The notes: generated by a model from the sequence alone, not told the origin. A stretch of 64,000 bases of DNA from an uncultured virus (IMG/VR IMGVR_UViG_3300020037_001477) (IMGVR_UViG_3300020037_001477), one strand, 5' to 3'. Shown: positions 351 through 64,000, numbered from the stretch's first letter. Program-made: numbers and translations.

Positions 351-1631
351 TTACTCGATCCTTGTCAAGGGAAACTCACTGAGCACGACGGGCGTGGCCT
401 CTTCCAAGTCGCGCTGACCCCGCTTGCGACGGAGCTTGCCGTATTCCCTCGGGACAGGCACGACCGTGGGGGTGGGAGAGTGTGCGCTCGGGAGGCGAGC
501 GTCGTTCTCGTGGGAGTACACCAGATTCTCGTCGATCTCCCGCTGCTCACGGGACAGAGCACGCGCTGTCTCCACCATGGCCTGCTTGTCTCTGACCTTC
601 AGGTGTCCCCAGCCCTTGCGGATCAGGTACTTCATCCTCACGCCCATCTCCGAGAGATACTCGTCGGTCTCCAGGCCCATAGGAAAGCCTAGCTGATAGA
701 GCACCCAGCGTGCGTTGTGCTGGCCCATGATCGCCAACTCACGGGGGTCAATCATCTGGTCGTTGAAGAAGGTTGTCTCCCTTCGGAACCACGACCAGAA
801 CTTCACGCCGCGTTCGTTGGTGACAGGATGCACCACGAGTTTCCCATGCTGAAGCACGTCCATCTTAACGAGGGCGTTGGGCATGGTGCGCAGGCCACCA
901 TCCAGGAAGCAGTGGTCAAGCTCAGCACTGTAGGCTTGCGCAGCCGGGGGGTAGGTGCGCTGGTACTCCCGCGTCAGGATACCCTTGCTGTGGCTCTCGG
1001 CGATGGTGGCCGCGCGCACCCGATAGAAGGCGACGGTGCCACTGACCAGAGACATGCGGGTAAGATCGCGGTTGGCTTCGTTGCGCCCGTGGTCGAAGTA
1101 ACTCCCGTCCTTCACCTGATAGAAGGGCGTGCCGTCCTGGCTTAGAAGCTCAAGCTGCACATTGCGCCTTTCCAAGGCGGTCATCTGTTCCAGCGTGAGC
1201 CAGCGCGACAGCGTGAGCATGTCGCTGAGCACCCATGGAGGCGCGCCGAAGTCGAACGCGCCCGGATCAGCGAGGAACTCGTGCGCGTGGTTTCTCCTGA
1301 CGCACAGCACGATGTCCCCCGGCAGCGCCGCGCGCACGATCAGGCGGAGCTTGCGCAGGGTGGCCACCCACACCGTGGGCTTGCGAGTTACTCCGTCCTG
1401 GTTCTGGAAGGGGAGCAGCGATCCCAGCCTCACGGAACCCACGCCCATGTAAGCTGTGACGAGGTCTTCGAGTCGGACGAGCGTGGGCTCCCGCGCCGAT
1501 GCCAGGGAGACAAGCGCCCGCTCCCGGTGCTGAGACAGCGGGTCGAGCTTCCCCCCAGCGCCGGGGGTAGCGTGCTCGATGGTGCTCGTGACGGGGTCTC
1601 GGGGGAGCCGCGCATTCCTGGGCCTACGCAT
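351..1631 (-). CDS. Hypothetical protein (about 426 aa)
   Basis: Long ORF with GC3-biased codons. ATG at 1631 is preceded by GGAG; upstream extension to 1715 lies in AT-rich non-coding DNA. Confidence 0.75.
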   Translation of the reverse strand: MRRPRNARLPRDPVTSTIEHATPGAGGKLDPLSQHRERALVSLASAREPTLVRLEDLVTAYMGVGSVRLGSLLPFQNQDGVTRKPTVWVATLRKLRLIVRAALPGDIVLCVRRNHAHEFLADPGAFDFGAPPWVLSDMLTLSRWLTLEQMTALERRNVQLELLSQDGTPFYQVKDGSYFDHGRNEANRDLTRMSLVSGTVAFYRVRAATIAESHSKGILTREYQRTYPPAAQAYSAELDHCFLDGGLRTMPNALVKMDVLQHGKLVVHPVTNERGVKFWSWFRRETTFFNDQMIDPRELAIMGQHNARWVLYQLGFPMGLETDEYLSEMGVRMKYLIRKGWGHLKVRDKQAMVETARALSREQREIDENLVYSHENDARLPSAHSPTPTVVPVPREYGKLRRKRGQRDLEEATPVVLSEFPLTRIE

Positions 1632-1971
1632 GTGACATACTCCAAAATTAAATAAACACGTTTTATGTTTTATCCCATCGCCAGACTTGTTTCTACCAGG
1701 AGATCGGAAACCCATCGCCGACCCGCTTAGTCAGTGTGAACCCCCCGGAGGGTTGTTCTGTAGGCTTCCCCCTGACAATTGGTTTTACACCTACTAATCC
1801 ACTCTTCACTTTCTCTAACTACGCGCATGAGGAAAAAAAGGAGAGAGATAGGAGGGGGTAGATAGGGGGGTGTGTATATATAGGGAAACTCTTTGGGGTT
1901 CTGAAGATCAATCCAGTAGGGATAAAACCAGATATCTGGGATATGGGCGATGGGTAAAGCTACCCAGAAAG

Positions 1972-1980
1972 TTATCCACA
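1972..1980 (+). promoter_or_regulatory. Perfect DnaA box TTATCCACA in an AT-rich intergenic island
   Basis: Exact match to the bacterial DnaA-box consensus. Single copy, function not shown. Confidence 0.45.
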
Positions 1981-2050
1981 GGGGAGGGGGGAGAGCTAGG
2001 GCGAGAGCTAGGGTGTGGCGTTGGGGCGATGGCGCGGGTAGGTTGGCCGC

Positions 2051-2689
2051 ATGTCTCACCCGAAGGCCTGTCTCGCCCTCGACCTGGGCTCGACCATGGG
2101 GTTCGCCGCCGCCAGCGATCTGGTTGTGCGCGCCGCGCGCCCGCTCGATGCAACGCGCTACTCCTGCTGGCCTGAGAAACTCCTGACCAAGCGGAAGGAC
2201 GAGCGCCCAGGCATGCGGCCGAAGCGTCTGCGCGATGCACTGGTCTCGACCGTCACCGCGATCAGGCAGGGGGAGTTCTTCGACGAGCCGCGCGAGCCGG
2301 TGCTGGTGTACGAGGACATCGTGTTCCAGAAGGGGCACCTTGCTGCGATTGTCTTTGGCCAGTTACTCGGCGTGATCCTGGAGACATGCGAGACACTGGC
2401 TGTCGAGTACGAAGCTGTCAGCCCCTCGACCTACAGGGCCTACTTGTTTGGACACACCGGGCCAACAGAACACGAGACGCTCTACCTCGTGTCTTCGCTG
2501 CTCGATGCACAGTGGTCGGGGGAGACAGATCACAACGCGCTCGATGCCATGGCGCTGCTGCTGTGGAAGCTGGCCGTCAGCACAAACGAAAAGACCGGGG
2601 ATGTCCCCGGCCTCGTCGCGCCTGCTCGATGGTGTGCCGGCTCAGTCTGGCGGGGCGCTCTTCGCAAAAAGCTGAAGGCGGCGGGCTAG
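2051..2689 (+). CDS. ruvC: RuvC-like Holliday junction resolvase
   Basis: LALDLGSTMGFA N-terminal strand with catalytic D, VYED, and C-terminal DHNALDAMALL, matching phage RuvC-like nucleases. Confidence 0.85.
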   Translation: MSHPKACLALDLGSTMGFAAASDLVVRAARPLDATRYSCWPEKLLTKRKDERPGMRPKRLRDALVSTVTAIRQGEFFDEPREPVLVYEDIVFQKGHLAAIVFGQLLGVILETCETLAVEYEAVSPSTYRAYLFGHTGPTEHETLYLVSSLLDAQWSGETDHNALDAMALLLWKLAVSTNEKTGDVPGLVAPARWCAGSVWRGALRKKLKAAG

Positions 2690-3250
2690 CACGTCGAGTT
2701 GCTTCGCCCTGTCGAGCGTCGCCTGCCTCTTTCCCATGGCCTGCGCCACGTCCTGCACTGTCTCCGATACCTCGGCTTCCGGCATGAGCCCCAGGCCTTG
2801 CAGCGTGCGGGTCATCACGCCGAGTTCATCCTGGTTTGTCTCAATGCGGATTGCGTCGAGCGCGTTGCGCTCTTCGCTCGTCATGCTGGCCGGGGCGTAG
2901 TCGAGTTCCGTCACCATGGCCACGCCCAGGCCTGACGCCACGGCGGTCAGCCGGTGCGCTACGCAGAGGCGCAGGTACTCACTGACGCCGACCGGCATGG
3001 GGTGCCGTCCGTTCAGCGTGTCTTGCTCCAGCCACTCTCTGACGCGCCGCACGGGTACGTCGAAGAGCGATGCCAGGGCGCGCGGCGTCACGCCCAGCGC
3101 TTGCATCGCCAACGCTAGCTGCATCGGGGTCAGCACCGTGCGCGCCGTCTTGCCCTGGACCCATGGCCACGCGTCCGCCGGGGCATAGCCCTGCGCCCCG
3201 GCGGAGCGACGCGCCCTCACGGGCGCGCCTGTCTCTGCGTTCATGCTCAC
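2642..3250 (-). CDS. Helix-turn-helix DNA-binding protein
   Basis: LGVTPRALASLFDVPVRRVREWLE..PMP is an XRE-like HTH. GTG start overlaps the TGA of the VWA gene (alternative ATG at 3244). Confidence 0.65.
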   Translation of the reverse strand: MSMNAETGAPVRARRSAGAQGYAPADAWPWVQGKTARTVLTPMQLALAMQALGVTPRALASLFDVPVRRVREWLEQDTLNGRHPMPVGVSEYLRLCVAHRLTAVASGLGVAMVTELDYAPASMTSEERNALDAIRIETNQDELGVMTRTLQGLGLMPEAEVSETVQDVAQAMGKRQATLDRAKQLDVLARRLQLFAKSAPPD

Positions 3251-5859: not shown

Positions 5860-5884
5860 GGTCTAGTTCCTTCTGCGTTGAGCG

Positions 5885-7718: not shown

Positions 7719-7781
7719 GTCTGTCTCCCGTGGAAGGGCCGCGCCTGCCCGATGCAGACGCGGCCAGGGTGTGAGTTACTG

Positions 7782-17124: not shown

Positions 17125-17294
17125 AACGCTCAACCGCATACCTGTATGCCAACCCTTCGGCTAAGCGGTTCCTCGGACCACGCTGCGGCGCGGCTACCGA
17201 CCGAACCCAAGCCCTCCGGGAGCAACACGAGGGAAGCGGGATGTCCGCTGGCCTAGCCAGCTACGTCCTCTTCGTGTTCACACTGGAGATTTCC

Positions 17295-18473
17295 ATGGCC
17301 GCTTTGCTTGGCATGCTTGGCACGGGTGACTTCCCGGCCGACCACCGTCCCGAAAACTGGCGCGAGAAGTATCTGCTGCTGGAGCCGAACGGTTCCGCGC
17401 CGCTGACCGCGATGCTCGCGATGCTCGCTTCGGAGAGCACCGACGACCCGGTCTACCACAACTTCCGCAAGGACTTGCCGGGGTTCACCTTCCTGCACTC
17501 CGGTTCGGCGCTCGCCGCCGCGACCGTCATCACCGCCGTGTCGAGCGACGACCTGTCGTTCTTCCGCGCCGGGATGCTGATCCGCAACTACCGCACGGGT
17601 GAAGTCCTGAAGGTCACGTCGAAGCCGACGCCGACCACGCTGAACGTCACGCGCGGCGTCGGCCAGAGCGGCACCGGTCAGGCGATCAACGCCAACGACG
17701 TGTTCTTCATGGTTGGCAACTCCAACCCGGAAGGCGCGGATACCCCGGAGGCCGTGCAGCACAACGCGGCGAGCACGACCAACCACTGCCAGATTTTCCG
17801 CGATCCGGTGAAGATCACCCGCACGGCGATGCAGACCAACTTCCGTACTGGCGACCAGTACAAGGAGAAGGCCCGCGACAGCCTGAAGCACCACATGATG
17901 GCCATGGAGCGCGCCTTCCTGTGGGGCCGCTACGACAGCATCACCGGTTCCAACGGCGAGCCGGAACGCTACACGGGCGGGCTGATCTCGGCCCTCTCGA
18001 CCAACGTGCTCGATCTCGCGGCGGCGTCCACGCCGAACACGCTGACCGAGCAGGACTTCGACGCCTTCCTGGCGCAGTACGCGTTTGCCTACGGGTCCAG
18101 CAGCAAGCTGGCCATCGTCGGCTGGCGCGTCGCCGACCTTCTCCAGCGCATGGCGAAGGACCGGTGGCAGATCGCCATGATGAACGGCGGCGGCACCTAC
18201 GGCATGACCTTCACGGCCTACGACACGTTCGCCGGCCGGCTGATGGTCAAGACGCATCCGATGTTCCGGCAGATCAGCGGTGCCGAGGACATGATGCTGA
18301 TCGTCGACACGGCGGACCTGCGCTACCGCTATGTCCAGGACACGGTCCTGCTGAAGGACCGCCAGTCCCCCGGCATCGACGGTGTCGTGGACGAGTACCT
18401 GACCGAGTGCGGCCTGGAGCTTCTCCAGGAGAAGACGCACGCGCTGATCCTCGGGTGGCAGCAGGTCGCCTAA
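17295..18473 (+). CDS. Major capsid protein (DUF5309/SU10-like HK97 fold)
   Basis: GNSNPEGAD, NHCQIFR, MERAFLWG, RYTGGL, YLTECGLE motifs; strongest codon bias; GGAG SD before ATG 17295. Confidence 0.9.
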   Translation: MAALLGMLGTGDFPADHRPENWREKYLLLEPNGSAPLTAMLAMLASESTDDPVYHNFRKDLPGFTFLHSGSALAAATVITAVSSDDLSFFRAGMLIRNYRTGEVLKVTSKPTPTTLNVTRGVGQSGTGQAINANDVFFMVGNSNPEGADTPEAVQHNAASTTNHCQIFRDPVKITRTAMQTNFRTGDQYKEKARDSLKHHMMAMERAFLWGRYDSITGSNGEPERYTGGLISALSTNVLDLAAASTPNTLTEQDFDAFLAQYAFAYGSSSKLAIVGWRVADLLQRMAKDRWQIAMMNGGGTYGMTFTAYDTFAGRLMVKTHPMFRQISGAEDMMLIVDTADLRYRYVQDTVLLKDRQSPGIDGVVDEYLTECGLELLQEKTHALILGWQQVA

Positions 18474-42747: not shown

Positions 42748-43067
42748 TGGAATGGGTTAGCGGCAACATCTACATCCGGCCGATGGAGTTCGAGAAGGCC
42801 GGGCAAGTGCGTCCTGGCCACGAACACAACTTCGACCATACGAGTGTCGTGTTTAAGGGCGCGGTTCGCGTCAAGGCAAAGACACCGGACGGGCGGCTGA
42901 TCGAGCGCGCGTTCACGGCTCCGCAGCATTTCCTGGTGCTGAAGAATGTCGAGCACGAGATCACGGCACTGGTCGACGATACCGTAGTTTGGTGTGTCTA
43001 CAGCCACCGGACTCCGCAAGGTGACGTGGTGCAAGACTACAACGGCTGGGGCGGAGCCTACGGCTAA
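42747..43067 (+). CDS. Cupin-domain protein
   Basis: GHEHNFDHTS..G.V and VEHEITAL..WCVY motifs; AGGAGG SD. Confidence 0.8.
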   Translation: MEWVSGNIYIRPMEFEKAGQVRPGHEHNFDHTSVVFKGAVRVKAKTPDGRLIERAFTAPQHFLVLKNVEHEITALVDDTVVWCVYSHRTPQGDVVQDYNGWGGAYG

Positions 43068-43498
43068 TGTGCGAACTTCTAGTCTTCGTGCGGGACAAGA
43101 CGAACCCGAACGACCCATACAAGGACGCGCGCCTGTATAAGGCTGGCGACGTGGTCGTCGTTGTGCCTGACGGCTGGAAGTGGGGCCTGCGAGAACTGGA
43201 CAACCCTGATTGGCGCATCATCAAGATTCCCAATCTCGCGCCGGCAGCACTTCAAAACCTGATGGATGTTGGGTTCAGCCTCGGCTCGCTCGATGCGAAG
43301 AATGTGCTTCGTCGACGCAGCAACAGGTTGGACTTGGCAGCGATCACAGACGCAGGCTTTGCCGACTTCCTGGCCGATGACAAGCGGCAGCAGCCTAGCT
43401 TCACGCTAGGCAGCGCCAAGGTGCTAGCAGCCGTAGCGCTGAAAGCGCCAGTCAACGATGCTGCGGTGATTGGCAATCCGCTGGAGGTAATCGGATGA
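43067..43498 (+). CDS. Hypothetical protein
   Basis: TAATG coupling; KAGDVVVVVPDGWKWG.RE motif. Confidence 0.7.
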   Translation: MCELLVFVRDKTNPNDPYKDARLYKAGDVVVVVPDGWKWGLRELDNPDWRIIKIPNLAPAALQNLMDVGFSLGSLDAKNVLRRRSNRLDLAAITDAGFADFLADDKRQQPSFTLGSAKVLAAVALKAPVNDAAVIGNPLEVIG

Positions 43499-44505
43499 CG
43501 GTCTCCAGTATCGGCTCTGGTGGCGGACGCGACTACTCGACCATCGCCTCATGGGAAGCGGCGGCGGCTGCGACGCTGACTGCGCCGTGGGAGGGTGAGT
43601 GCTATAACGATAGCGAGTTTTCGGTCGCCGGGACTATCGTCACCTTTGCCGGCATCACGGCAAGCGCTACGAACTTCATCGAGCTTCGCCCGGCGTCTGG
43701 GCAAGGTTTCAAGGACCACGCCAGCGCCGCGTCCAATCCGCTACGTTACGACCAGACCAAGGGCGTCGGGCTGAAATGCACCGCGAACTACGTGGCTGCG
43801 GTTGTGATCCAGGTCAACCATGTGCGGCTGCGCGGGCTGCAAATCCTGCACACCGGCGGCGGCAACGACGCATCTTGTGTCAGGGAAGACGCAGGCGGGA
43901 CCAGCAGCAATTTGATTCGGGACTGCATCCTGGAAAGCACGGGTAATACGTCATCGTATGGCGGGGTGTTCGGAGTGCGCGGCGCGACGGTTGAAAACGT
44001 CGTGACCATCCATCGCGGGTCCGGTACCCAGATTGCGGTATTGGGGAACGACGGGCCGACAGTGATGAACTGCACCATGGTGCGTCCTGCCGATCTGTCG
44101 GATTTGACCTATGTCTTCTCGAAGTATTTTGGCACGGCCTGCACGGTCACGAACACCGCAGGGTTCGGCTGCACCAACTTTTTTGGCGGCGCTGGCTCGG
44201 GGAGCGGCACGAACAACGCGACGGACCTCGCTTCGGTCGGGTTTGGCAGCGGGCATCTCACCAGCCTGACCTACGCCGACCAGTTCGAGAATGAGAACAA
44301 CACCACGCCAGATTTCCGGCTCAAGGCCGGGTCCGATCTGATCGACGCTGGTACGGGGACTGGTGCCCCGACTGACGACATCATCGCGCAGGCTCGCTCC
44401 ACAACCGACATCGGTGCCTGGGAGTATCAGTCTGGCGGTGGTGGAGGCGGTGACGTCTTTCCGCCTTTCTTCCGGCACGAACCAACCACTCACTTGAGGA
44501 TGTGA
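43495..44505 (+). CDS. Parallel beta-helix (pectate lyase-like) protein
   Basis: DYSTIASWEA N-terminus, beta-helix-like repeats, C-terminal DFRLKAGSDLIDAG..DIGAWEY. Confidence 0.65.
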   Translation: MTVSSIGSGGGRDYSTIASWEAAAAATLTAPWEGECYNDSEFSVAGTIVTFAGITASATNFIELRPASGQGFKDHASAASNPLRYDQTKGVGLKCTANYVAAVVIQVNHVRLRGLQILHTGGGNDASCVREDAGGTSSNLIRDCILESTGNTSSYGGVFGVRGATVENVVTIHRGSGTQIAVLGNDGPTVMNCTMVRPADLSDLTYVFSKYFGTACTVTNTAGFGCTNFFGGAGSGSGTNNATDLASVGFGSGHLTSLTYADQFENENNTTPDFRLKAGSDLIDAGTGTGAPTDDIIAQARSTTDIGAWEYQSGGGGGGDVFPPFFRHEPTTHLRM

Positions 44506-44508
44506 AAC

Positions 44509-44970
44509 ATGGAAGGCTACACCTATGAAGTAAGGAATGGCGGGGTCGTGATCTCGACCGCGATCACCGTCATTCAGATCAAGGCCGGTGCGTCGGCGCT
44601 CGAACTCCTGCGTGCGTCCATTGGGCAGCGCGGGTCGACGACGAGCACCATCGAGCGCATCGGCATCCTGCGCAAGTCGGCGGCTGCCACGGTGACTTCG
44701 GCGACCCCGCTGAAGCTCAACCCTGGCGATCCGGCGGCGCTCGCGGTTGGCGGCGCGTCTGCCACCGGCATCACCGCATCGGCCGAAGGCACGGATGGAG
44801 ACATCCTGGTCGACGAGTGCTTCAACATCGTCAACGGCATCTGGTCGTGGCTGCCGACGCCGAGCGAGCGCATCCGCGTTCCGCAGGGCGGCATCATCGC
44901 GTTGAAGTTCCTGGCCGCGCCGGGGAGCCAGACGTGGTTCGCCAGCATGAAGTTCCGCGAGCTTCAGTAG
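44509..44970 (+). CDS. Hypothetical beta-rich protein
   Basis: GAGG SD; good codon bias. Confidence 0.7.
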   Translation: MEGYTYEVRNGGVVISTAITVIQIKAGASALELLRASIGQRGSTTSTIERIGILRKSAAATVTSATPLKLNPGDPAALAVGGASATGITASAEGTDGDILVDECFNIVNGIWSWLPTPSERIRVPQGGIIALKFLAAPGSQTWFASMKFRELQ

Positions 44971-48906: not shown

Positions 48907-51108
48907 CTAGTCCTTTGCATCGGCCCAATTGTCTCCGATCCCGCCAGAGACAAGGCCATTGGTAGGCATCTGCGGGAAGATGGTGGTCGCGGCCCAGATC
49001 AGGGTCTCCTTCATGACCTCGAACGCTTCGGCCGCGTCGTGCTCCGCCACGTCGGCGATCAACTCGTCATGCACCGTGTGAACGAGATGCGCGTCGAGCC
49101 GATAGTCGGGCTCGACCTGCCACACCTTGGGGAACCGGCTGAGCGCGAGCAGCATGATCTCCGCCGCGCCGCCCTGCGAGGGCGTGTTGATCGCCTTGGT
49201 GAAGGTACCACCGCGAGGCTTGTAGACGTTGCCGCACGGCGTCCACAGGAAGCCGCTGACCTCGGCCTGCGCCTCCTGGAGGTTCTTCCACGCCTTGAAG
49301 TCCACGAACAGATCGAGGATCGCGTGCTGGATCGCAGTGGCTTCGTCGACCGTGATGACGATCTTGCTCTTCCGCAGCAACAGCGTGAGACCCTTGGGCT
49401 GCTGGCCGAACAGCAGACCGAACAATGCGTTCTTCGCCGCCTGTCGCATCCACTTTCCCGCGCCCTTTTTGAAGAACGCGACGACGTCAAGACGCGCAGC
49501 GAAGTTCAGCAGATCGGTCAGGTCGATCTGGCCGAAGGTGGTGCGGACCAGCGGGTGGGATTGGAAGCAGGCGCACGCCGTCATGACGTGAATGTCGAGG
49601 CCGCGCTGCACAGCTTCGAGCAGGAAGCGGTCCTTCGAGAGACAGGCCGGGACACGTAGCTCGATCTGCCCAAGGTCAAGCACGACGAACTTGCGGCCCT
49701 TCCTGGCTTTGAAGAGCTTCCTGAAGTTTCTCTTCAACTCGTCGTCTTCGTCAGGGCGCTTGATCGTCTGGAGCGCCGGCTCCGTCACAGAGAAGCGGAA
49801 CGTCTCCGTGCCGCCGATCCTGAAGTTCGCGTGGATGTTCTGCGTGAACGGATTGATGTGGCGTCGCAGGTTCCAGCCGAGCGTCTCGAACTCTTTCTTT
49901 ACCTCGGCCCATTCGATCAGGCACTCCAGCGGGTATTGAAGCTCCTGGACGATCATGTGCTTGTACTGCTCAAGCGTGTCTTGCCCGGTCGACATCGCGC
50001 CCGTGTCGGTGACGGGCCAGTCGCCGACCGTGCGCGCTCCGGTGTTGAGCAGCACCCACTGCACCCACGCTGAGACCTGCGCGTAGCTTCCGGGGTTCTG
50101 CACCTTCGGCGCGCCCGGCGGGCTGTGCGCCTTGAACGCTTCAAGCGTGCGGTCGTGCAGCGCATCATACTCGCGCTCCATTTCCTCGCACATCTTCCAA
50201 TGCAACTCGGCGTCGAAGCCGATGCCGTGCGTCACCACTTCGTTCACCGCTGGCATCGCGCCGCGCAGCAGGTTGTAGACACGGCGGCAATTCTCCTGCG
50301 GCAGACGCTTGATCTCGCTGATGAAGCGGTCCTGTGCCCAGAAGAGTTCGTAGGTCGCGACCACGTCGGTCGAGGCGTAGCTGATCTGCTCGACCGTCAG
50401 CGTCGGTGCGCCCCAATCACTGACCTGAAGCTGCTTCGAGAGTTTCTTCCCGAGATGCTGGTCGCAGAGGTATGCCAGCGTGCGCGTCATGCCGGACAGC
50501 GACGTGATCGCCACGTTCTGGAGCATCGTGCAGTGCGGCGTCTTGGCCGGCGCGAAGCCGTACTGGCTCAGCATCTTCATGTCGAACGATAGATAGTGGC
50601 CGACCCAGGCCACGCCCGGCGAGTTCAGAAACTCGTAGAGCGGTTCGAGAGCTTCGCGAGACAGCACATGCAGATCGGCGACGAGCACCGTGTCTCCGCC
50701 CCAATAGACCTGGATCAGGCGGACGTTGCCGGTGCCGACGTTGAGACCGCCTTCACGCACGTTCTTCGAGCACTGCTCGCTCCACGCCTCGGCGTCGAGC
50801 AGCGCTTGGCGCATGTTGATCCAGAGGTCGGAGTTCTGATCCTTCGACTTCACCGCCTCGAAGTTGGCGCGTGCCTGCCTCTCGAACTCCTGCGCCTCGG
50901 CGAACTCTTTCTTCACCGCCTCGACGCAGTAGGTCTCGACGTCGACACAGATCAGCAGCGGGTTGTTGGGATCGAGGTTCTGGGGGATCGCGTTGGCGAG
51001 CGCGTCGCGGGTGGTCGGGACCAGGACAGTCTTGTTCCAGAGGAAGTTGAAAAACCCCCCTGGCAAATGAGCTTCCGGTTGGGCTGCGGCGGTCACGGCT
51101 GCGGTCAT
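48907..51108 (-). CDS. polA: DNA polymerase, family A, with 3'-5' exonuclease domain
   Basis: Exo DVET, SFD, YASTD; motif A DLGQIELRV, motif B RQAAKNALFG, INTPSQG, motif C VHDELI. Confidence 0.95.
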   Translation of the reverse strand: MTAAVTAAAQPEAHLPGGFFNFLWNKTVLVPTTRDALANAIPQNLDPNNPLLICVDVETYCVEAVKKEFAEAQEFERQARANFEAVKSKDQNSDLWINMRQALLDAEAWSEQCSKNVREGGLNVGTGNVRLIQVYWGGDTVLVADLHVLSREALEPLYEFLNSPGVAWVGHYLSFDMKMLSQYGFAPAKTPHCTMLQNVAITSLSGMTRTLAYLCDQHLGKKLSKQLQVSDWGAPTLTVEQISYASTDVVATYELFWAQDRFISEIKRLPQENCRRVYNLLRGAMPAVNEVVTHGIGFDAELHWKMCEEMEREYDALHDRTLEAFKAHSPPGAPKVQNPGSYAQVSAWVQWVLLNTGARTVGDWPVTDTGAMSTGQDTLEQYKHMIVQELQYPLECLIEWAEVKKEFETLGWNLRRHINPFTQNIHANFRIGGTETFRFSVTEPALQTIKRPDEDDELKRNFRKLFKARKGRKFVVLDLGQIELRVPACLSKDRFLLEAVQRGLDIHVMTACACFQSHPLVRTTFGQIDLTDLLNFAARLDVVAFFKKGAGKWMRQAAKNALFGLLFGQQPKGLTLLLRKSKIVITVDEATAIQHAILDLFVDFKAWKNLQEAQAEVSGFLWTPCGNVYKPRGGTFTKAINTPSQGGAAEIMLLALSRFPKVWQVEPDYRLDAHLVHTVHDELIADVAEHDAAEAFEVMKETLIWAATTIFPQMPTNGLVSGGIGDNWADAKD

Positions 51109-51135
51109 GGTGTTTCCCTTTTGTCTCTCGGTCGT

Positions 51136-51173
51136 CACCCCCTCCCCCGGTCTACGCTCCAGGGGAGGGGGTG
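51136..51173. terminator. Strong intergenic hairpin between SSB-like gene and polymerase
   Basis: CACCCCCTCCCC..GGGGAGGGGGTG perfect 12-bp inverted repeat; no clear U-tract. Confidence 0.4.
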
Positions 51174-52581: not shown

Positions 52582-53712
52582 TTAGTCCACTTCCTCTGTT
52601 TGCTGGTTCCCCCTCTTGGGCGTGATGGTGAGCCGGGGGTAAAGCTCGCCACCTTCGAGAAACGGTGTCGGGTCGATGCCGGCCGCGAGCAGCTTGTCCT
52701 GCGAGACACGCGTCGGGGTCTTCATCGAGAAGTAAGAGACAGAGCCAGACGGCGTCCGCACCGACTTGGTGCCAGCCTCCTGGAGTATCTGCTTCACGTC
52801 TTCACTGATCCGACCCGTCTCATGCTCAGCGAACTTTTTGCCGTCGTTCGCCTGCGCGTACTGCTGGATCAGCGGCTCGATCTTCTCAGCCACGCCAGGA
52901 GGCGCAGCCTTTTTGTCCTTCGGGATCATCGAGACAGCGGCCTTCGTGCATTCCTTTTTGAAGGCGCAATACTGACACTCGTTGCCCTCGTTGATGTAGA
53001 GCCCCTCCTGCCTTGGCAGGTTGGACAGCGAGCGCTCGTACATGATCTCGCTGGCGCGCCTCGTCAGGCGTTGCGCGTATTCCTCGTCGTACATCACGTA
53101 GTAGAGCTTACGCTCGCTGTAGAAACTCGCGTTCACGTAGAGGATCACGGCATAGCTGGGCATGTACTGGCCGACGCGGCGCAGGATGCTCATGCCCTGG
53201 ATTGCCTGCGAGACGTGCTCGATCTTCGGTTCCTTCAGCCCGTCGAAGGCGCGCGGGTCGATGGACTTCACTTCGAGATAAAGCTGGTCGACGATGGCGT
53301 CCTCGATCACGCGGCCGAGTTCGTCGAAACGCAGCGGCACAGCGATGATCGGCTGCGGCGCGACGAAGATGCCGTCAGGCGTCGCGCTCTGCGCGCCAAT
53401 CACCATGGTCTGTTGTGCGTCGCCGGCCAGATCGAGCCGCAAGCCTTCGGGGTGGTCCTTCAGCGCCGCGCGAAGCTGCTCGACGACCCAGGCCTCGACG
53501 TTGTGCCCACGCTCCAGCGCCCCGTAGTCCTGCTTGTAGGTCTTGTCCAAGGGCTGGTTGTGCTTCAGGTAGACGGTCTTCCGAGCACACTGCGAAATCT
53601 CCGACGCGCCGACCGTGTCGGCACGATTGTGGCCGGACCAGTCGCGCACGTTGTGCTGGGAATAGACGCCCTTGTCGATCAGACTGGAGACGTTCTCGAA
53701 CGCGTCGGTCAT
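52582..53712 (-). CDS. Cas4-like PD-(D/E)xK exonuclease with Fe-S cysteines
   Basis: GASEISQCARK, TPDG, LEVKS, CQYCAFKKEC. Confidence 0.85.
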   Translation of the reverse strand: MTDAFENVSSLIDKGVYSQHNVRDWSGHNRADTVGASEISQCARKTVYLKHNQPLDKTYKQDYGALERGHNVEAWVVEQLRAALKDHPEGLRLDLAGDAQQTMVIGAQSATPDGIFVAPQPIIAVPLRFDELGRVIEDAIVDQLYLEVKSIDPRAFDGLKEPKIEHVSQAIQGMSILRRVGQYMPSYAVILYVNASFYSERKLYYVMYDEEYAQRLTRRASEIMYERSLSNLPRQEGLYINEGNECQYCAFKKECTKAAVSMIPKDKKAAPPGVAEKIEPLIQQYAQANDGKKFAEHETGRISEDVKQILQEAGTKSVRTPSGSVSYFSMKTPTRVSQDKLLAAGIDPTPFLEGGELYPRLTITPKRGNQQTEEVD

Positions 53713-53715
53713 GGC

Positions 53716-53949
53716 CTATTCCTTTGTCCACATGGCGCGAGCACCGGCCCAAGCGAGTACGATGGCCAGCATCACAGTGATAAGCACGACGTGTCCGACC
53801 ATAGCCGCAATCCACAGCGGGATCGAGACAGGGAACAGCACGACCGCCAGCCGACGCAACCACAACGGCCACTTATGCGCTGATACCGTGGTCTCAAAGC
53901 TATCGACCGCGTGTTTGCCGATCAACTCGGCGATCTCGAAGTTGGTCAT
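53716..53949 (-). CDS. Small membrane protein
   Basis: ATGA overlap with helicase stop; long hydrophobic segment. Confidence 0.6.
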   Translation of the reverse strand: MTNFEIAELIGKHAVDSFETTVSAHKWPLWLRRLAVVLFPVSIPLWIAAMVGHVVLITVMLAIVLAWAGARAMWTKE

Positions 53950-55769
53950 GGTGTATCTCCCTGAAGCTGTGCTTTCGCGAGCGCGAGTTCGTCGGCGATG
54001 ATGCCGACCATGTTCTGTGTCTCCGCGCCGGGGTTGAGGACGGCGAGCGCGACGGCGTTCTTCTGCTGAAGACGAGACGCGAGACGCTCTTCGATGGTCG
54101 AGCCGCACACCACGTAGGTGTAGGTGCAAGGCTTCGTCTGCCCTCGGCGATGGATACGATCTTCCATCTGATCCATCTTGTGCGGGCTCCAGTCGAGTTC
54201 GACCACGAGCATGTTCGACGACGCCGTGAACTCGTAGCTCTCGCCCCCCGTGTCGATGGTGGTGAAGAGCACGCGGTAGACGCCGGCCTGGAACTCCTGG
54301 ATCAGCTTGTCTCGCTTCGCCATCGGCGTGTCACCGTGGATCACAGCGACGGCGACCGTATCCTCGGGCTGCTGCACGGCCTTCTGGTCTACCGGGTTGT
54401 CATCGTCGGTGTCGTCGCCGATAGCTGCGGCCAGATCGTCAGCTACCCACTTGTGCTTGGTGAAGACGACGAGCGGCTCGTTGCGGTCGGTGCTCTCGAT
54501 GTAGTCCTTGATCCACGCGACGGTCGCCGACATCTTGGCCTTCGCCGTGATCTGCATCAGCGCGTTCATCTTCGGCAGGATCGTAAGCGTGTTCATCGGA
54601 TTGCCGGTGGCCATGCTCGTCCAGTGATCGACGATCTCGTCTTCGACCTCCTGGTACTCGGCAGCCTGCTCCGCATCCATAGGCACGATCATCGTCTCGT
54701 AGGACTTGGCCGGCAGGAACTTCAGCACGTCGCTCTTCAAGCGGCGGAAGACGTAAGGCGCGATCTCGGCGCTCAACTTCGACAAGTTACTCGCGCCGCT
54801 GAAGTCGTAGCCGAAGCCGTTGTACTTCATGTCGCAATACTGCCGGGCGTAGCGAATGAAGTTGCCCCACTTGGTGGCGTCGATCATGTTGAGGATCGGC
54901 CACAGCGACGCAGGCCGTCCGATCAGCGGCGTGCCGGACATGGGCATGAAGTATTTGCAGCGCAGAGAGAGCCAGCGCAGCGCCTTCGTGCGGCGCGCAT
55001 TCTGGTTCTTGGCGCGGTGGCACTCGTCGGCGAAGAGCGTCACGAAGGGGAAGTCCTTGCCGGCCTTGTCGGCCAGCTTGTAGGCGGAGGCCCAGCCGAC
55101 CAGCAACACGCCGTTGGTCGAGGCGACCCAATCGCGCGGGCCGAACTGGTCGATGCCGTAGAGGTAGACCGGACGATCCGGGTTCACCTTTTTCCAGTCG
55201 CGGCGGAACTTCAGCAGCATGCCCTCGGGCAGCACGCCGATGGCGCGTTCGTTAGGCGCGGTGTTCTCGGTGAAGAAGATCGCGGCGTAGGTCTTGCCGA
55301 GCCCTCGGTCCCAGGCGAGAAGCCCGCGTCCGCCATTGGCCAGGAGTTGAGACAGGTCATCGACCTGATAAGGATCGAGAGACACGTCCGGCGTCTGGGT
55401 CAGGGTGAGAGACAGCCGGGTCTTGGGGGCGACCTGCACACCGTGGTCGGCCTGGGCGTCTGCGATCCTGGCCTGGGTTATGTCGTCGACATCGACACGC
55501 ATCGCCGACGTCTGCCCTACCTGGATCAAGCGCAGCAGGCACGCGACCTGCGCCGCTTCGAGCGACGGGTCGCCGGACCACACGAACCACCAGCACTTGT
55601 TGTCGGGGTTCCAGCGTGCGCTAGGGATGGACCGGAGTACGTCCAGCAGCGCCGGACTGTACGGCGTGCGAACCTCGCAAACCGGCGGCGTGCTCTTGGT
55701 GGTGGAGATGGAGAAGCCCGAAGGGCGTGCTGCGTTGAACGCGGCGGACAGGGGGGACGGGGCTGGCAT
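53946..55769 (-). CDS. SNF2-family helicase with N-terminal HARP-like domain
   Basis: GLGKT, DECH, MSGTP, QMEDRIHRRGQ; N-terminal YSPALLD..ARWNPDNKCW. Confidence 0.92.
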   Translation of the reverse strand: MPAPSPLSAAFNAARPSGFSISTTKSTPPVCEVRTPYSPALLDVLRSIPSARWNPDNKCWWFVWSGDPSLEAAQVACLLRLIQVGQTSAMRVDVDDITQARIADAQADHGVQVAPKTRLSLTLTQTPDVSLDPYQVDDLSQLLANGGRGLLAWDRGLGKTYAAIFFTENTAPNERAIGVLPEGMLLKFRRDWKKVNPDRPVYLYGIDQFGPRDWVASTNGVLLVGWASAYKLADKAGKDFPFVTLFADECHRAKNQNARRTKALRWLSLRCKYFMPMSGTPLIGRPASLWPILNMIDATKWGNFIRYARQYCDMKYNGFGYDFSGASNLSKLSAEIAPYVFRRLKSDVLKFLPAKSYETMIVPMDAEQAAEYQEVEDEIVDHWTSMATGNPMNTLTILPKMNALMQITAKAKMSATVAWIKDYIESTDRNEPLVVFTKHKWVADDLAAAIGDDTDDDNPVDQKAVQQPEDTVAVAVIHGDTPMAKRDKLIQEFQAGVYRVLFTTIDTGGESYEFTASSNMLVVELDWSPHKMDQMEDRIHRRGQTKPCTYTYVVCGSTIEERLASRLQQKNAVALAVLNPGAETQNMVGIIADELALAKAQLQGDTP

Positions 55770-55997: not shown

Positions 55998-58742
55998 ATG
56001 ACGTTCCAACTAGACCAGAAGGCGGTCGTCGCCTTTCTGCGCACGATCACACCGCCGAACAAGGCGGGCTCTCTCGCCATCATCTCGCGCCCGACCGACG
56101 CCAACCTGAAGATCGCAGAGGATGCGCTAGCTGCGGGGGAGAAACGCGGCGGGTTCATCTACAAAGAGACCACGCGGCAGTTTGCCGGCAACGATCCGAA
56201 CGGTCTCACCAATCTGATCACGCTGCTCAACGAGCGCAACGGCATCGCGCACATCTCAGCGCGCATGGGCCGCATCAAGATCGGATCGCCGACAGCGAAG
56301 CTCGACAATATCGAGCAGGTCGGTGCGCTCTGGATCGACATCGACGCCAAGAAAATGGCACCGACGTTCTACCCCGATCCTGACACAGCGGTGCAGTGCG
56401 CGGTCGACGCGCTGCTGGAGTTCGAGTTGCCGCCAACGATGATCGTCTTCACTGGTGGCGGCGTGCATGCCTATTGGAAGCTGAGCCAGGGTGCAGGCCC
56501 GGCGGCGCTATCCGTGATCGAGACGTGCAACCGCGCGCTGGTGAACCTGTTCACCGCTGACGACACGCCTGCGATCATGAAGGCGAACGCGGCGATGCGT
56601 ATCCCTGGCACGATCAACTGCAAGTACGGGATCGTGACGGAGATCGTGCATCACGACGAGACCGCGATCTACGATCTAGGCGACACGGCGAACTTCCTAG
56701 CTCAGCCGCGTGACGCGCTCGCCTTCGGCCCTGGTCTCATGACGCTGAAGGACACGCTTGATCGGTTGTCCGGCAAGCAACTCACGCCGGCCGCGCTATA
56801 CCAGCGCGCGGCTGCGCAGGTCGGGGCGCGCGGCGGCAAGACCGATGAAGAGTGGGAAGAGATCATCGGTCGCATCGCTCTGCCTGGGCACCGCAACAGC
56901 GCATGGGCAACGGTGTGCGGCAAGCTGGCGCAGGAAGGCTTGTCTCCTGACCAGATGGTTGGCTGGTACGCGCAGGAGTACGAGCAGCAGGCGAAGGCCT
57001 ACCCCGGCACGCGCGAGCCGCTGCCTCCGATGGAAGTAGTCGCGACAGCGGATAGCGTGTGGAAGAGCCACCAGTCTTCGCGGCGGGAGACCGACGCTCG
57101 CCACCCTACACAGGCCCCCGCGTCCGCATCGGATGCAGGGGCGGAAGAACCGGAGCCGGAAGCAGAGACAATAGCGCTGGACCCTGTGTCGACATCCAAT
57201 CCGTTTGGCAGCGCGTCCGTCTCAACGCGAGCGCGCGTCGAGGACATCGAGAAGAACGTCAAGAAGGCGCAGCGAAAGCAGCACATCCTGCGGGCGTTCG
57301 TTGATGGCGTCGTGTCGTTCTTCGATCCTGGCCGCAACGGCAGGCTGATCGAGAGCGAAGAACTCTTCTGGGTTTGCGATCTGACATCCAACGTCTGGTC
57401 GTCGAAGACCCACGACGCCATGGCGCGCGTCATCAACGACTTCATCACCTACGGCGTTGGTGCCGTCGCCAGCGCGGCGGTGGTCAACGAGGTCAGGTTG
57501 ATGCTGAAGAACAAGACGCACCAGACCGTGGTGCCGTGGAACAGTGGCGCGGGCAAGCATGCGGTGGTGTTCTCGAACAACATCGTGATCGACCTGAACA
57601 CGATGAACGAGTTGACGCTGACCCCCGATATGTACGTGCAGGATCGTCACAAGATGGCGTGGCCGTGGGAGCCCGGCGCGCAGTGCCCGTTGTGGAATAA
57701 GGCGCTCGCCGACACCTTCGCGCACATCCCTGCTGCTGATCAGCCCGGCGTGCTCGACACGATTGAAGAGTGGATGGGGACGATCCTGATTGGCAGGCAC
57801 AAGCCGCGCGAGATTGCCAAGGCCATGGTGTTCTTCGGTCCTGAGTTGACCGGCAAGTCCACGGTGATCGACGTGTGTCGGCGAATGTTGGGAGACAGCA
57901 AAAGCTCGTCGCTCAAGCCCAGCGATCTAGGCGGCGACCATAGTCTCAGCGAGCTAGCTCAATCCATCGCTTGGCTGGTCGACGAAATCCCCTCCGCCGG
58001 CAAGCTCGAAGACAACATCTTCAAGCAACTCGTCACCAACGAACCGGTGCAGATCAACCCGAAGTACGTCGCCGCCTACACGAAGCGCCTGGACTTGACC
58101 ATCGGGTTCGCCGGCAACAACCTCCCGATCATCACCGACCCGACGATGGCCACGCTGAGCCGCATCATCTGGGTGCCGTGCCTAACGCAGTTCTTCCCGA
58201 ACAACCCAAACACGAACCCAACCCTGATCGACGATCTGGAGAAGGAAGCCGCTGGCATCGTGCAGCAGGTGGCCTGGGCAGCGAACCGCGTGCTGCTGCG
58301 CGGCCGGTTCGATCTGCCGCCTGTGTTGATGCAGGAACAGGAGAAGATCAAGGTTGTCTCCAACCCGATGCACGACTACCTGAAGCAGGCGATCAGGCCG
58401 AACCCGAAGGTCTCGATCAAGGTGCGCGATCTCCTGGCTGGCTACCTTGGGTACCGCGCCATGATCCGGGGCACTGTCTCTAAGAAGCTGATCCACGAGC
58501 GAGACACGACGACCGATGTCCTCGGGCGTGTGCTGAGCACCATGGTCCCGTCAGCGATCTCCAGCCAGAGCGGGGGGCAAGGCGTGTGGATCGGGGTGGA
58601 GTGGAGCGACAACGGTCTCGGGTGGGTGCTGCATGGGGACGGGATGTTCGATCACCCGACCTATGGAAGCTCTCCGCAAGCTGCGAAGAGCGCCAACATG
58701 GCAGCACCCCCCGGCACCGTCCTGCCTTTCGCGAGGCCTTAG
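55998..58742 (+). CDS. Primase-helicase: RepB-like AEP primase fused to D5/P4-type SF3 helicase
   Basis: LWIDID, TGGGVHAYW, MRIPGTIN; GHRN PriCT-like; GPELTGKST, VDE, AGNNLP. Confidence 0.9.
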   Translation: MTFQLDQKAVVAFLRTITPPNKAGSLAIISRPTDANLKIAEDALAAGEKRGGFIYKETTRQFAGNDPNGLTNLITLLNERNGIAHISARMGRIKIGSPTAKLDNIEQVGALWIDIDAKKMAPTFYPDPDTAVQCAVDALLEFELPPTMIVFTGGGVHAYWKLSQGAGPAALSVIETCNRALVNLFTADDTPAIMKANAAMRIPGTINCKYGIVTEIVHHDETAIYDLGDTANFLAQPRDALAFGPGLMTLKDTLDRLSGKQLTPAALYQRAAAQVGARGGKTDEEWEEIIGRIALPGHRNSAWATVCGKLAQEGLSPDQMVGWYAQEYEQQAKAYPGTREPLPPMEVVATADSVWKSHQSSRRETDARHPTQAPASASDAGAEEPEPEAETIALDPVSTSNPFGSASVSTRARVEDIEKNVKKAQRKQHILRAFVDGVVSFFDPGRNGRLIESEELFWVCDLTSNVWSSKTHDAMARVINDFITYGVGAVASAAVVNEVRLMLKNKTHQTVVPWNSGAGKHAVVFSNNIVIDLNTMNELTLTPDMYVQDRHKMAWPWEPGAQCPLWNKALADTFAHIPAADQPGVLDTIEEWMGTILIGRHKPREIAKAMVFFGPELTGKSTVIDVCRRMLGDSKSSSLKPSDLGGDHSLSELAQSIAWLVDEIPSAGKLEDNIFKQLVTNEPVQINPKYVAAYTKRLDLTIGFAGNNLPIITDPTMATLSRIIWVPCLTQFFPNNPNTNPTLIDDLEKEAAGIVQQVAWAANRVLLRGRFDLPPVLMQEQEKIKVVSNPMHDYLKQAIRPNPKVSIKVRDLLAGYLGYRAMIRGTVSKKLIHERDTTTDVLGRVLSTMVPSAISSQSGGQGVWIGVEWSDNGLGWVLHGDGMFDHPTYGSSPQAAKSANMAAPPGTVLPFARP

Positions 58743-61925: not shown

Positions 61926-62780
61926 TCAGTGATTGATGAAGGCGATTGCCCTGCCCCAGGAGGCATCCGCCCAACACAAGCCGCAGGTCGAGCACGCGGA
62001 GGTCTTGTCGATCTGCGCCGGGCAGACGATGACGTCCTTGTGCAACGCCGTCTTGTCTCCTGAGCTAGAGACAGGGATGGCCTCGCCTTCGTAGGTGATC
62101 GGGTTGGGCACCGATCTCCTGACCTTCCAACGCTCGGGGTACGCCTTACCGATCTGCATGACAGCTTGCCCGATCTCGCTCTGTGGCTGGCGCGCAGTGT
62201 ACCCGAAGACCCGCAGGCCGCGCATCGCCTTCATGGCCGTGTCCCACAGGCGCACGTATCCAAGCGAGTAGAAGTCCCCCAGAATATGGAGCCTCACAAC
62301 GAAGCCTCGGGGGTACTCGCTCTGAAGTTTCTCCAGATTGCGCCAGAGCGCGATCTCGAACAGCGTCGAGGGTTGGTACCGCTTCGACCAGTTCATGTTG
62401 TTGCCGTAGCACGAGAGCCAGTGCATGCACGAAGACGGGCATGTCTTGCGCTCTTCGAGGGTGAGCGCGAAGATTGGCATGCCTGTCCACGCGCCACGAG
62501 AGACAACGGCCCCTAGCTTGCGCTGATAGCCTCCGGGCTTGAGCACCCGCTCGTCCATCTGAGCGAACACCCTGGTGTGCGGGAAGAGCGTGCGGCTCTC
62601 CGTCACAGCTTGGTGGTCCTTGGTGAGCACGACGCCCCGCCGCTTGCGCGTGCTCACCGTGATGTTGGAGAAGCGCCGCCCCTCCATGCTGGGCTTGTGA
62701 ACCATCAGCGTGCCCGCCAGATCGAGCTTCCGGCGGCGATCTCGAAGGTCTCGTCGTGTGTGTAGCTCACGGCTCGGCAC
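61926..62780 (-). CDS. GP88-like Fe-S (radical SAM-related) protein
   Basis: TCPSSCMHWLSCYG, VRLHILGDF, VFGYT, CPAQ..CSTCGLCW; start uncertain. Confidence 0.75.
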   Translation of the reverse strand: MPSRELHTRRDLRDRRRKLDLAGTLMVHKPSMEGRRFSNITVSTRKRRGVVLTKDHQAVTESRTLFPHTRVFAQMDERVLKPGGYQRKLGAVVSRGAWTGMPIFALTLEERKTCPSSCMHWLSCYGNNMNWSKRYQPSTLFEIALWRNLEKLQSEYPRGFVVRLHILGDFYSLGYVRLWDTAMKAMRGLRVFGYTARQPQSEIGQAVMQIGKAYPERWKVRRSVPNPITYEGEAIPVSSSGDKTALHKDVIVCPAQIDKTSACSTCGLCWADASWGRAIAFINH

Positions 62781-63048: not shown

Positions 63049-63051
63049 GAG

Positions 63052-63345
63052 TTACTCCGCTCCTGGTTTGGCCGGGATGCGATATGCCCCCGGCGCGTGG
63101 ATCATCTCTCGCTCGGACTGTGGATCGCCCCAGCCCTGTCCATAGTTGGTGCCTGGGCCGCGCTTGTCGACGGCCTTGTCAGCAAGCTGCACCATCTTGC
63201 GGTGCTCGCGCGCACGAAGACGTCGCTGTGCCGGGGACAACCTAGCCAGTTGTTTGTGGTGGGGCGATCCGGGGATTGGACACGAGCCGTTGCACTGAGA
63301 CCAATCGTCCCCAGAGACAGCCCCGCACTTAGGACACGCTGTCAT
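63052..63345 (-). CDS. Small Cys-rich protein (MTACPKCG..)
   Basis: CPKC..CNGSC; GGGAG SD before ATG 63345. Confidence 0.55.
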   Translation of the reverse strand: MTACPKCGAVSGDDWSQCNGSCPIPGSPHHKQLARLSPAQRRLRAREHRKMVQLADKAVDKRGPGTNYGQGWGDPQSEREMIHAPGAYRIPAKPGAE

Positions 63346-63754
63346 CGGTCGGCTCCCGCTGTTGGCGCTCGTTGCGGATGTAGTAGGCGATCTCCATCTC
63401 GGCGGTCGCCTCGCACGCGAACACGATCTCGGGCTGCTCGGCGCGCCGCCCCAGGAGCATGATCTCCTGCGAGTTGCCGTTGCGGTCAGGCCCCATCGGG
63501 TATTCGCCGTCGCTTTCGTTCCAATCCTTGATGATCTTTTTTGCGGCACCCCAGAAGGTTCCGTCGTAGGTCTCGTGGATTGCGGCTTCGTCCCAGACGC
63601 CGGCCTTGGCGCACTCACCCACGAGGAACTCCCACTTCGGAAGGCACTTGTGCGTGCGCTTCCTGTCTCCGCCGATCAGCGCAGCAGAGACACCCTCGTT
63701 GAATGACAGGCCGTCATTCATGAGGTACTCGCCGCAGGTAGGACACGGCCTCAT
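63329..63754 (-). CDS. Hypothetical protein with N-terminal zinc-finger-like CPTC..HKC
   Basis: GGAG SD; co-directional with neighbours. Confidence 0.6.
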   Translation of the reverse strand: MRPCPTCGEYLMNDGLSFNEGVSAALIGGDRKRTHKCLPKWEFLVGECAKAGVWDEAAIHETYDGTFWGAAKKIIKDWNESDGEYPMGPDRNGNSQEIMLLGRRAEQPEIVFACEATAEMEIAYYIRNERQQREPTDDSVS

Positions 63755-63760
63755 GACTGG

Positions 63761-64000
63761 CTACTCCGGGATTTCAGTGGGCGGGGTCTCGGCGAGATGC
63801 TTCTCGATGTCCTCGCGAGACGGGTAGACCTGCTCCAGCAGAGACACGGCGTCCTTGGTCATGACGAAGAGCGCGTCTCGTGCTGCGACCTGGGTCTCGA
63901 TCAGCGACGAGCTTGAACTCAGCACCGCCTGCGCCGCAGCCGCAAGCCGGCGCAGCTTGCCGCGCATCTCGAACGCGCGCTGGAACAGGACGGCGTTGGC
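63761..64000 (-). CDS. Hypothetical protein, probably 5'-truncated by the window edge
   Basis: Frame stays open to the end of the window. Confidence 0.45.
   Translation of the reverse strand, partial: ANAVLFQRAFEMRGKLRRLAAAAQAVLSSSSSLIETQVAARDALFVMTKDAVSLLEQVYPSREDIEKHLAETPPTEIPE

Follow-up and report, generated by a model that had tools for sequence, protein, structure and literature searches.

Why should a short, nonpalindromic DNA word be repeated far beyond expectation throughout a viral genome, and which protein might read it? The question is raised by the hexamer GAGACA and its complement TGTCTC in a 64,000-nucleotide stretch of DNA from an uncultured virus (IMGVR_UViG_3300020037_001477), the whole of which is referred to below as the window. 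Judged by its gene content, the window comes from a podovirus related to the family of Roseobacter phage CRP-810. An earlier note on this DNA had proposed that the word is a signal read by a phage or host protein. The word behaves most like a start site of the phage's own archaeo-eukaryotic primase (AEP) multiplied by selection across the genome, a tentative reading to which we give somewhat less than an even chance. What is new is the series of word dialects across the family, the contrast between a prophage and its host, the retention test, and a cultured member of the family (CRP-810).

The window contains 136 exact copies of the word, 69 as GAGACA (plus strand) and 67 as TGTCTC (minus strand), compared with 25 expected from base composition, 30 to 49 under Markov models of orders 1 to 3 (GAGACA being the top word under each order), and 37.2 ± 5.7 (maximum, 49) in 100 dinucleotide shuffles. 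Called genes occupy 60.4 kb of the window and hold 127 of these copies, against 16.2 expected after a global synonymous-codon shuffle (maximum, 26 in 150 shuffles), 19.9 when synonymous codons were shuffled per gene, and 29.6 when the shuffle was conditioned on the amino acid, the first base, and the next base; GAGACA ranked first in all three (z, 19 to 25). The excess, about eightfold, is the largest among the 24 family genomes (long records of relatives gathered by capsid) and 13 control sequences that were compared. All six reading frames are occupied (29/30/5 and 2/26/35 copies), and the rare codons ACA, AGA, GGA, and TCT are recruited: 29 of 84 Glu-Thr pairs are encoded by GAG-ACA (3.8 expected), and half of the AGA codons (10 of 20) are part of the word. 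Enrichment of coding-strand copies (64 versus 7.2 expected; 8.8-fold) equals that of template-strand copies (63 versus 8.5; 7.4-fold), a balance that speaks against a function in RNA or in the direction of transcription. The signal resides in the DNA word rather than in the protein. The earlier note had counted about 135 copies with an even strand split, estimated 20 to 25 from base composition, remarked on the several frames and rare codons, and suggested selection or drive on the DNA word rather than on the protein; all of this is borne out, and every coordinate that it listed holds a copy. The neighboring words GAGACT (7 versus 12 expected) and AAGACA (24 versus 15), equal enrichment of which it had named as grounds for doubt, do not share the excess, and only GAGAAA (26 versus 13) was mildly raised among the 19 one-letter neighbors listed. 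Its suggested search for a longer consensus gave only weak flank preferences, with a purine 5' of GAGACA and a scarcity of thymine 3' of it.

Within the window, placement is essentially random. Spacing is Poisson-like (coefficient of variation, 1.0), and the number of copies per gene is approximately what the codons allow multiplied by the genome-wide fold; the giant ejection gene (Table 1), for example, carries 20 copies, with 21 expected on this basis. There is no strand polarity by bin along the genome, no gradient from a genome end, and no transcription-strand bias, and the folding energy around the word is that around control words, giving no hairpin signal. The word is indeed missing from the major capsid gene and from 41.75 to 44.79 kb, as had been noticed before, but neither absence is a signal: about one copy would be expected in the capsid gene from its codons, and a gap of the latter length has a P value of 0.16 under random placement. 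Pairs no more than 40 bp apart are overrepresented (20 versus 11; P = 0.007). Close inverted pairs in the order TGTCTC...GAGACA, 13 to 26 bp apart, lie at 47023-47041, 48930-48952, 62054-62073, 39309-39336, 63664-63692, and 58475-58506, and among pairs less than 60 bp apart this order occurs 10 times and the reverse 3 times. In five relatives (G003, G004, G005, G006, and G008), the lineage word is denser in replication genes, those of the helicase (9 to 20 copies versus 4 to 12 expected) and polymerase, whereas the portal and capsid genes have fewer copies, a pattern not seen in the window.

The word is also retained between strains. The window and its relative L128 are 80% identical in nucleotide sequence across 15.3 kb, and silent positions within the word were retained in 34 of 44 and 36 of 46 cases, compared with expectations of 21.6 and 22.7 based on these codons at other places. 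GAGACA ranked first of 416 hexamers for silent-base retention (z, 5.2), and in four further genome pairs the lineage word ranked 1, 1, 5, and 1. Single sites turn over (28 of 58 were retained between the window and L128), so copy number matters more than position. The word is kept by selection or by biased repair, both of which predict the retention, and the earlier alternative of selection or mutational drive therefore stands. In the second case the word would have no fitness function, and a modification or repair bias would lower its loss or convert near matches, as has reportedly been proposed for the cyanobacterial word HIP1. Sites placed wherever coding permits, gene counts close to fold times expectation, random spacing, and turnover of single sites would all suit such a bias, and lower loss is likewise expected of biased repair. 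However, the word has no one-letter neighbor depleted enough to supply 110 extra copies, and a host enzyme would neither yield the same word in phages of 37% to 53% GC nor stop at a prophage border. Moreover, the window has no visible methyltransferase, as the earlier note had stated: none was found among the proteins scanned with Pfam (57), PHROGs (60), and NCBIfam (53), although a remote enzyme or one encoded beyond the window could escape these scans. We regard an origin of this kind, lacking any fitness function, as very unlikely.

A check in related phages revealed that most relatives have their own top word. That of G002 is TGGACA (161 copies versus 37 expected); marine members of the window's subfamily have CAGACA or YAGACA; CRP-810 and its kin have CAGACG or CAGACR (CAGACG in CRP-810, 136 versus 52); G017 has CAAGAC; a Poseidonocella prophage has CACGC[TG]C; G010, G012, and G016 have CGTAC; G013 has AACGCCA; G011 has TGGCCAA (best word TTGGCCA, 95 versus 16); and G018 has GCCAA. 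Only weak words were found in G014 and a Kistimonas prophage. More distant capsid relatives (33 to 41% identity) have no comparable word in their flanks, save for one case of CCGGCG, and neither have phages TL, KPP25, and Kuura. CRP-810 (L208) has second enriched words, CGTACG (65 versus 23) and ACGTAC (91 versus 38), like those of G010, G012, and G016, and GCCAA/CTTGGC is a second word in many of its kin. Top-word density in the family (1.2 to 3.7 per kb) overlaps that in controls (0.9 to 4.4) and hence provides no evidence for a shared target density. The top words of phages NrS-1 (GCTTGA; L450; 58 versus 20) and Pam3 (CGATCC; L318; 154 versus 54) are not known priming sites, and the latter may be a by-product of CGATCG avoidance.

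The Poseidonocella contig separates phage from host. CACGCTC occurs 117 times in 1 to 60 kb and 0 times in 60 to 80 kb, and in 120 kb of host genes it occurs 19 times, versus 14 expected. The word stops at the prophage border and thus tracks the phage lineage rather than the host; it is a phage trait and not a host signature. Of the two kinds of reader originally envisaged, a phage protein is favored by this result, but a host protein is not, since the prophage word is not enriched in Poseidonocella genes. A conserved host protein (an AddAB host Chi, a nucleoid protein, or a host partner of the primase) might still be considered, as host-read words do build up in phages, according to the covered parts of a study of Chi (PMC12315714). 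Against this, two phages of roseobacter-type hosts carry two words, CAGACG in CRP-810 and CACGC[TG]C in the Poseidonocella prophage, and CAGACG recurs in a contig assigned, by binning alone, to a metagenome-assembled genome of Aquaspirillum. A host reader is, in our judgment, highly improbable.

Among phage proteins, the primase, which was absent from the readers proposed earlier, fits the shape of the word best. It has a RepB'-like catalytic domain at residues ∼1 to 235 (W-I-D-I-D and G-G-G-V-H-A-Y-W), a PriCT-1 helix bundle at 296 to 357, and a D5/P4-type helicase at 527 to 819, and a Foldseek search with its model matched the S-2L PrimPol (E = 1.7e-8) and RepB' (E = 2e-7). The family comprises two subfamilies, that of the window, with a RepB'-like primase and PriCT-1, and subfamily B, the CRP-810 kin, with a Prim-Pol. 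Both encode an AEP primase, and in each a helical region containing a G-R motif comes after it; the motif is lost in the Kistimonas prophage and G014, the two with the weakest words. Short priming words are described in the covered sections of several papers: RepB' initiates with dATP at the T of GTG, its primers being 10 to 12 nucleotides long (PMC8567376), the pRN1 and NrS-1 primases favor GTG (PMC10250227, PMC8718748), the pRN1 helix bundle binds the GTG priming triplet (PMC10250227, PMC5862659), and T7 primase uses GTC and prefers T/G-rich over A/G-rich template flanks (PMC6136900).

We therefore propose, short of even confidence, that the AEP primase encoded by the phage starts preferentially at the word. 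The enzyme would read the single-stranded template 5'-T-GTC-TC-3', place an adenine nucleotide opposite the central T to begin the primer (as the cases of RepB' and T7 primase suggest), and copy toward the template 5' side, giving a primer of 5'-ACA plus about six bases. By chance, such a six-letter site would occur once per 7 to 8 kb per strand in a GC-rich genome; silent changes creating sites would be slightly favored and those destroying them purged, leading to approximately 1 site per 0.9 kb per strand. A spacing of 0.9 kb per strand is within the range of lagging-strand fragments. Both strands would serve as the lagging-strand template, hence the lack of polarity, and this would imply replication in both directions. 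The word and the primase would drift together among lineages.

Three observations are consistent with this proposal. First, most of the family words can be spelled on one strand with a YGT core (T-GTC-TC, T-GTC-CA, T-GTC-TR, C-GTC-TG, GAGC-GTG, C-GTA-C, and TGGC-GTT). The core AC[AG]/[CT]GT is present in the top hexamer of 18 of 24 family genomes and 2 of 13 controls, compared with 23% of all hexamers, and words of about five kinds contain it (T-GTC, C-GTC, C-GTG, C-GTA, and C-GTT). In the primase register, what stays constant would be the opening of the primer (A-C-purine), and what varies would be the recognition side, which is not copied. In L352, nearest to CRP-810, AGACG is replaced by GGACG (69 versus 42) with the core kept; comparison with L352 for specificity residues singled out no protein. 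Second, TTGGCCA (G011) and TTGGC resemble the second NrS-1 consensus, NTTGPuPyPyA. Third, silent positions 2 to 7 bases 3' of GAGACA are poor in T in the window (z, -2.8; bottom of 1,448 control words) and in L128 (z, -2.5), and in six pooled genomes z was -6.2 downstream versus -1.9 upstream (controls, -1.9 and -1.3). The depletion is present in both gene orientations and fades beyond +6, and a primer-side base preference would be expected to produce it.

Several results weigh against the primase as reader. In the same test, established priming sites show hardly any enrichment in the genomes to which they belong (T7 TGGTC, 123 versus 81; NrS-1 GTG, 641 versus 615, and NTTGRYYA, 37 versus 35; phage 1706 CCAAC, 90 versus 81), T7 sites have no flank signal, and no GAC word was found in six cultured phages with distant homologues of the primase domain or in S-2L, where the top 4-mer, CACC/GGTG, is only 1.3-fold enriched. 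The YGT core was spotted after the words were known, in genomes that are kin, and the signal in G011 is mostly the palindrome TGGCCA, with only one of eight NrS-1-type words raised. The flank positions were likewise picked after the first flank results had been seen; the asymmetry of T depletion was strong in the discovery set (z, -6.3 versus 0.2) but weak in held-out genomes (-3.6 downstream versus -2.7 upstream, and -3.2 versus -2.4 with the nearest two bases excluded; -2.6 versus -1.9 in the window alone), and G002 and subfamily B have no such tail. Comparison of the helix bundles between the two subfamilies gave no significant alignment (hhalign, 0.7%), and Pfam makes no PriCT-1 call in subfamily B. 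When word profiles were partially correlated with each gene family, the primase did not stand out (0.14 and -0.34 in B; 0.35 in A), these correlations being unstable, with capsid, Gam-like protein, and small genes ranked at the top. No module swap parting the primase from the virion genes was met, as the loci found by primase alignment (27 of 27; best 80 of 465) were family members where examined. Finally, in none of 17 genomes tested were the sites more evenly spaced than random.

The comparison with characterized priming systems is similarly two-sided. The motifs of AEP and T7 primases (RepB' GTG in ssiA, pRN1, NrS-1, and T7 GTC) are, in the covered parts of the reports, short asymmetric words with a G-T core, like that of the window (PMC8567376, PMC10250227, PMC8718748, PMC6136900), and the primase of the window has a RepB' fold and a helix bundle, together with a possible primer-side base preference. 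In contrast to these motifs, the window word has six letters, is enriched eightfold genome-wide on both strands, and varies with lineage, whereas the T7, NrS-1, and 1706 sites are not enriched. The RepB'/ssi origin is described as a 40-nucleotide hairpin site present twice (PMC8567376, part covered); the 136 dispersed sites of the window, with folding energy as at control words, led us to reject an origin of that type.

A virion protein is an unlikely alternative reader. The likeliest candidate would be a domain of the 3,026-residue ejected polyprotein, which might bind the duplex word either way and coat, anchor, or mark the genome as self. Strand symmetry and random spacing would suit such a nonpolar binder, the two subfamilies have in common CAGAC-type words, the virion module, the giant protein, and the CobS/CobT pair, and not the polymerase or helicase, and the LUZ24-like phages TL, KPP25, and Kuura combine smaller ejection proteins with the lack of a comparable word. 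On the other hand, the giant proteins yielded no common sequence-specific DNA-binding domain, the parts found in common being membrane helices, stretches of peptidase-like and ART-like type, and a gp16-like end; the central part of the giant covaries poorly with the word; a full giant is combined with a weak word in G014 and the Kistimonas prophage; and the lack of a gradient from a genome end and the higher density in replication than in structural genes of marine relatives are not as such a reader would predict. A private self code of the podovirus family, in which a domain of the ejected gp16-like polyprotein would bind ∼130 sites and shield or license the incoming genome, with specificity shifting per lineage, seems to us improbable to the same degree. 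Domains of the giant were among the readers named in the earlier note, as were helix-turn-helix (HTH) proteins, and neither suggestion has so far gained support: the HTH protein of the window was set aside, as it was not found in G002 despite the strong word there and differs in its recognition helix between phages with the same word. CRP-810 gp25 was also rejected as a reader.

The giant protein itself is mosaic. Its C-terminal part folds like the T7 gp16/PhiM1 ejectosome protein (E = 1.6e-5; Z, 11.9; root mean square deviation, 5.3; 292 aligned). Residues ∼1120 to 1350 are found only in the window phage among its relatives, and their W-Y...A-N-Q...K-L..F...V-V-I-D-I-H pattern resembles a helix-hairpin-helix glycosylase-like domain. 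For this stretch in the middle of the protein, the best ESM Atlas match was DUF7178 (score, 0.76; a lead only), and a sequence search of PDB with the giant gave no match. The giant of G002 has a GNAT domain, and several others have ART-PolyVal. In CRP-810 (L208, 21570-31210), the giant is annotated as three open reading frames (gp34 to gp36), compared with a single frame of 3,000 to 3,400 residues in relatives, which indicates frameshifts, either real or from sequencing.

Quite unlikely, in our view, is a private Chi, at which the Cas4/RecE-like exonuclease would pause or cut during resection and hand over to strand annealing, with both orientations favoring recombination-dependent replication. 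A PD-(D/E)XK nuclease is present in both subfamilies, weakly homologous between them, and a one-sided flank effect would suit a directional enzyme too; Chi itself accumulates in phages under selection (PMC12315714, part covered). However, in subfamily B this nuclease does not follow the word more closely than the genome background does (partial correlation, 0.07). The Chi-enriched lambdoid phages LLS, MD8, and P1 resemble the window in having a short nonpalindromic word selected within phage genes, but the covered text describes Chi as host read, strongly biased in orientation, and clustered at genome ends, in phages mostly without their own recombination genes (PMC12315714). The window word is phage specific and nonpolar, with an even strand split, no polarity by bin, and random spacing, by which membership in the Chi class was rejected, and the window encodes its own nuclease, helicase, and polymerase.

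Other dispersed words differ more clearly. The nick motif WACTRTGAC/TACTRTGMC of tf-, TL-, and Rembedalsseter-like Pseudomonas podoviruses is, in the covered parts of its description, also clade-wide and intragenic and ends in GAC, but is a 9-mer with approximately 9 to 13 copies on one strand (PMC11780129), in contrast to 136 copies of a 6-mer on both strands; a tf/T5-type nick motif was therefore rejected. A gp16-like end of the ejection protein is common to these phages and the window. DNA uptake sequences (DUS), uptake signal sequences (USS), and HIP1 extend over whole cellular chromosomes and are recognized by proteins of competence or methylation. Like the window word, they are dispersed and strand symmetric, are placed where coding allows, and form lineage dialects; unlike them, the word of this phage family is confined to the phage, as judged from Poseidonocella, the one informative host pair. 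TGTCTC is also the plant auxin response element, to which no link was found. All other explanations together are, again, very unlikely to account for the word. No report of the GAGACA word or of family-wide words was found in the literature covered, which included few subscription papers. CRP-810 itself resembles the window in capsid, virion gene order, CobS/CobT pair, an ejection protein of ∼3,000 residues, and an enriched word, CAGACG, and the covered parts of the paper on the CRP-810-type family mention no enriched word (PMC11288001).

Whichever protein is the reader, the presence of each lineage's own word in silent positions of nearly all genes provides natural matched pairs of word and protein. 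If the primase reads the word, genome composition alone would predict priming specificity for dozens of uncharacterized AEP enzymes, and the evolution of specificity would be visible in the GTC, GTG, GTA, GTT, and TTG variants. If a virion protein reads it, the word would be a self mark of a new kind. Direct testing of the reader is feasible in the cultured member CRP-810, and the words are useful for binning phage contigs and locating prophage borders.

Table 1. Positions of the word and of the genes and regions of the window referred to in the text
Feature	Position	Strand	Remarks
GAGACA/TGTCTC copies, dispersed	567..63846	both	n = 136; mean spacing, 923 bp (+) and 956 bp (-)
TTGCTGG tandem array	1-119		17 copies; noncoding
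HTH protein	2642..3244	-	in part of the subfamily; set aside as reader
vWA partner of CobS-like ATPase	3247-5817		kept across both subfamilies
CobS-like AAA+ ATPase	5885-7390		kept across both subfamilies
Mostly noncoding, divergent region	7718-8932		between leftward early genes and packaging genes
Major capsid protein, SU10 type	17241..18473	+	45% identity to Roseobacter phage CRP-810; 0 copies of the word
Polyvalent ejection protein, 3,026 aa	28996..38076	+	rival candidate reader; HExxH peptidase-like and ART-like stretches, gp16-like end
gp16-like C-terminal part of ejection protein	35713-38073		
Longest word-free stretch	41744..44797		3,060 bp between copies
Family A DNA polymerase with 3'-5' exonuclease	48907..51138	-	candidate primer extender; profile matches
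Cas4/RecE-like exonuclease	52582..53712	-	rival candidate reader; weak homology to CRP-810 gp28 family (E = 0.0018)
SNF2-type helicase	53946..55769	-	replication module; profile matches
AEP primase-helicase, 914 aa	55998..58742	+	candidate reader; profile and Foldseek matches
PriCT-1 helix-bundle domain	56883..57068	+	PF08708; 22.2 bits (cutoff, 21.1)

The gene content of the window includes an SU10-type capsid and portal, terminase, PolA, the Cas4/RecE-like nuclease, the SNF2 helicase, the primase-helicase, the CobS/CobT-like pair, and the ejection protein, and its nearest cultured phage is CRP-810. The window represents a sister group to the CRP-810 type, with PolA, SNF2, and a RepB'-like primase in place of Prim-Pol, and another terminase; the window does not have the module of CRP-810 (Prim-Pol, AAA_24, PD-(D/E)XK, resolvase, and integrase) as such, and there was no integrase match. 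Both subfamilies have the virion genes, the giant, and CobS/CobT in common, and the nuclease weakly so; their polymerases, helicases, and primases belong to different families. The fragments G001 and G047/L322 are identical. Near-identical DNA was present in 17 sequencing runs that contained half or more of the words sampled; the sources were freshwater, wastewater, sludge, and soil.

Other words are avoided in the window, almost totally in the case of the palindromes GGCGCC, CCGCGG, CGATCG, CTCGAG, CTGCAG, AAGCTT, and others. The asymmetric hexamers CAGCTC, CTCCTC, CACCTC, CTCATC, ACTGGG, and AGATCC are also avoided (0 to 3 copies versus 24 to 55 expected), CAGCTC in many relatives too, as is GANTC, which we take as a hint of an alphaproteobacterial host. 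Such avoidance usually marks restriction pressure, and the avoided words are likely a list of host restriction or BREX targets. The tandem array at the start of the window may extend beyond it, and no similar array was found in the relatives checked, save for a different repeat in G002. ESM Atlas gave only a lead for 9342-10127 (best score, 0.89). The N terminus of the CobS-like ATPase is a short helical domain that looks to us like SAP/HeH. The divergent region next to the packaging genes varies between strains (among 40 of 983 variant entries for contigs aligned to 300-20000) and has two sigma-70-like promoters facing apart, at 8275 (-) and 8679 (+).

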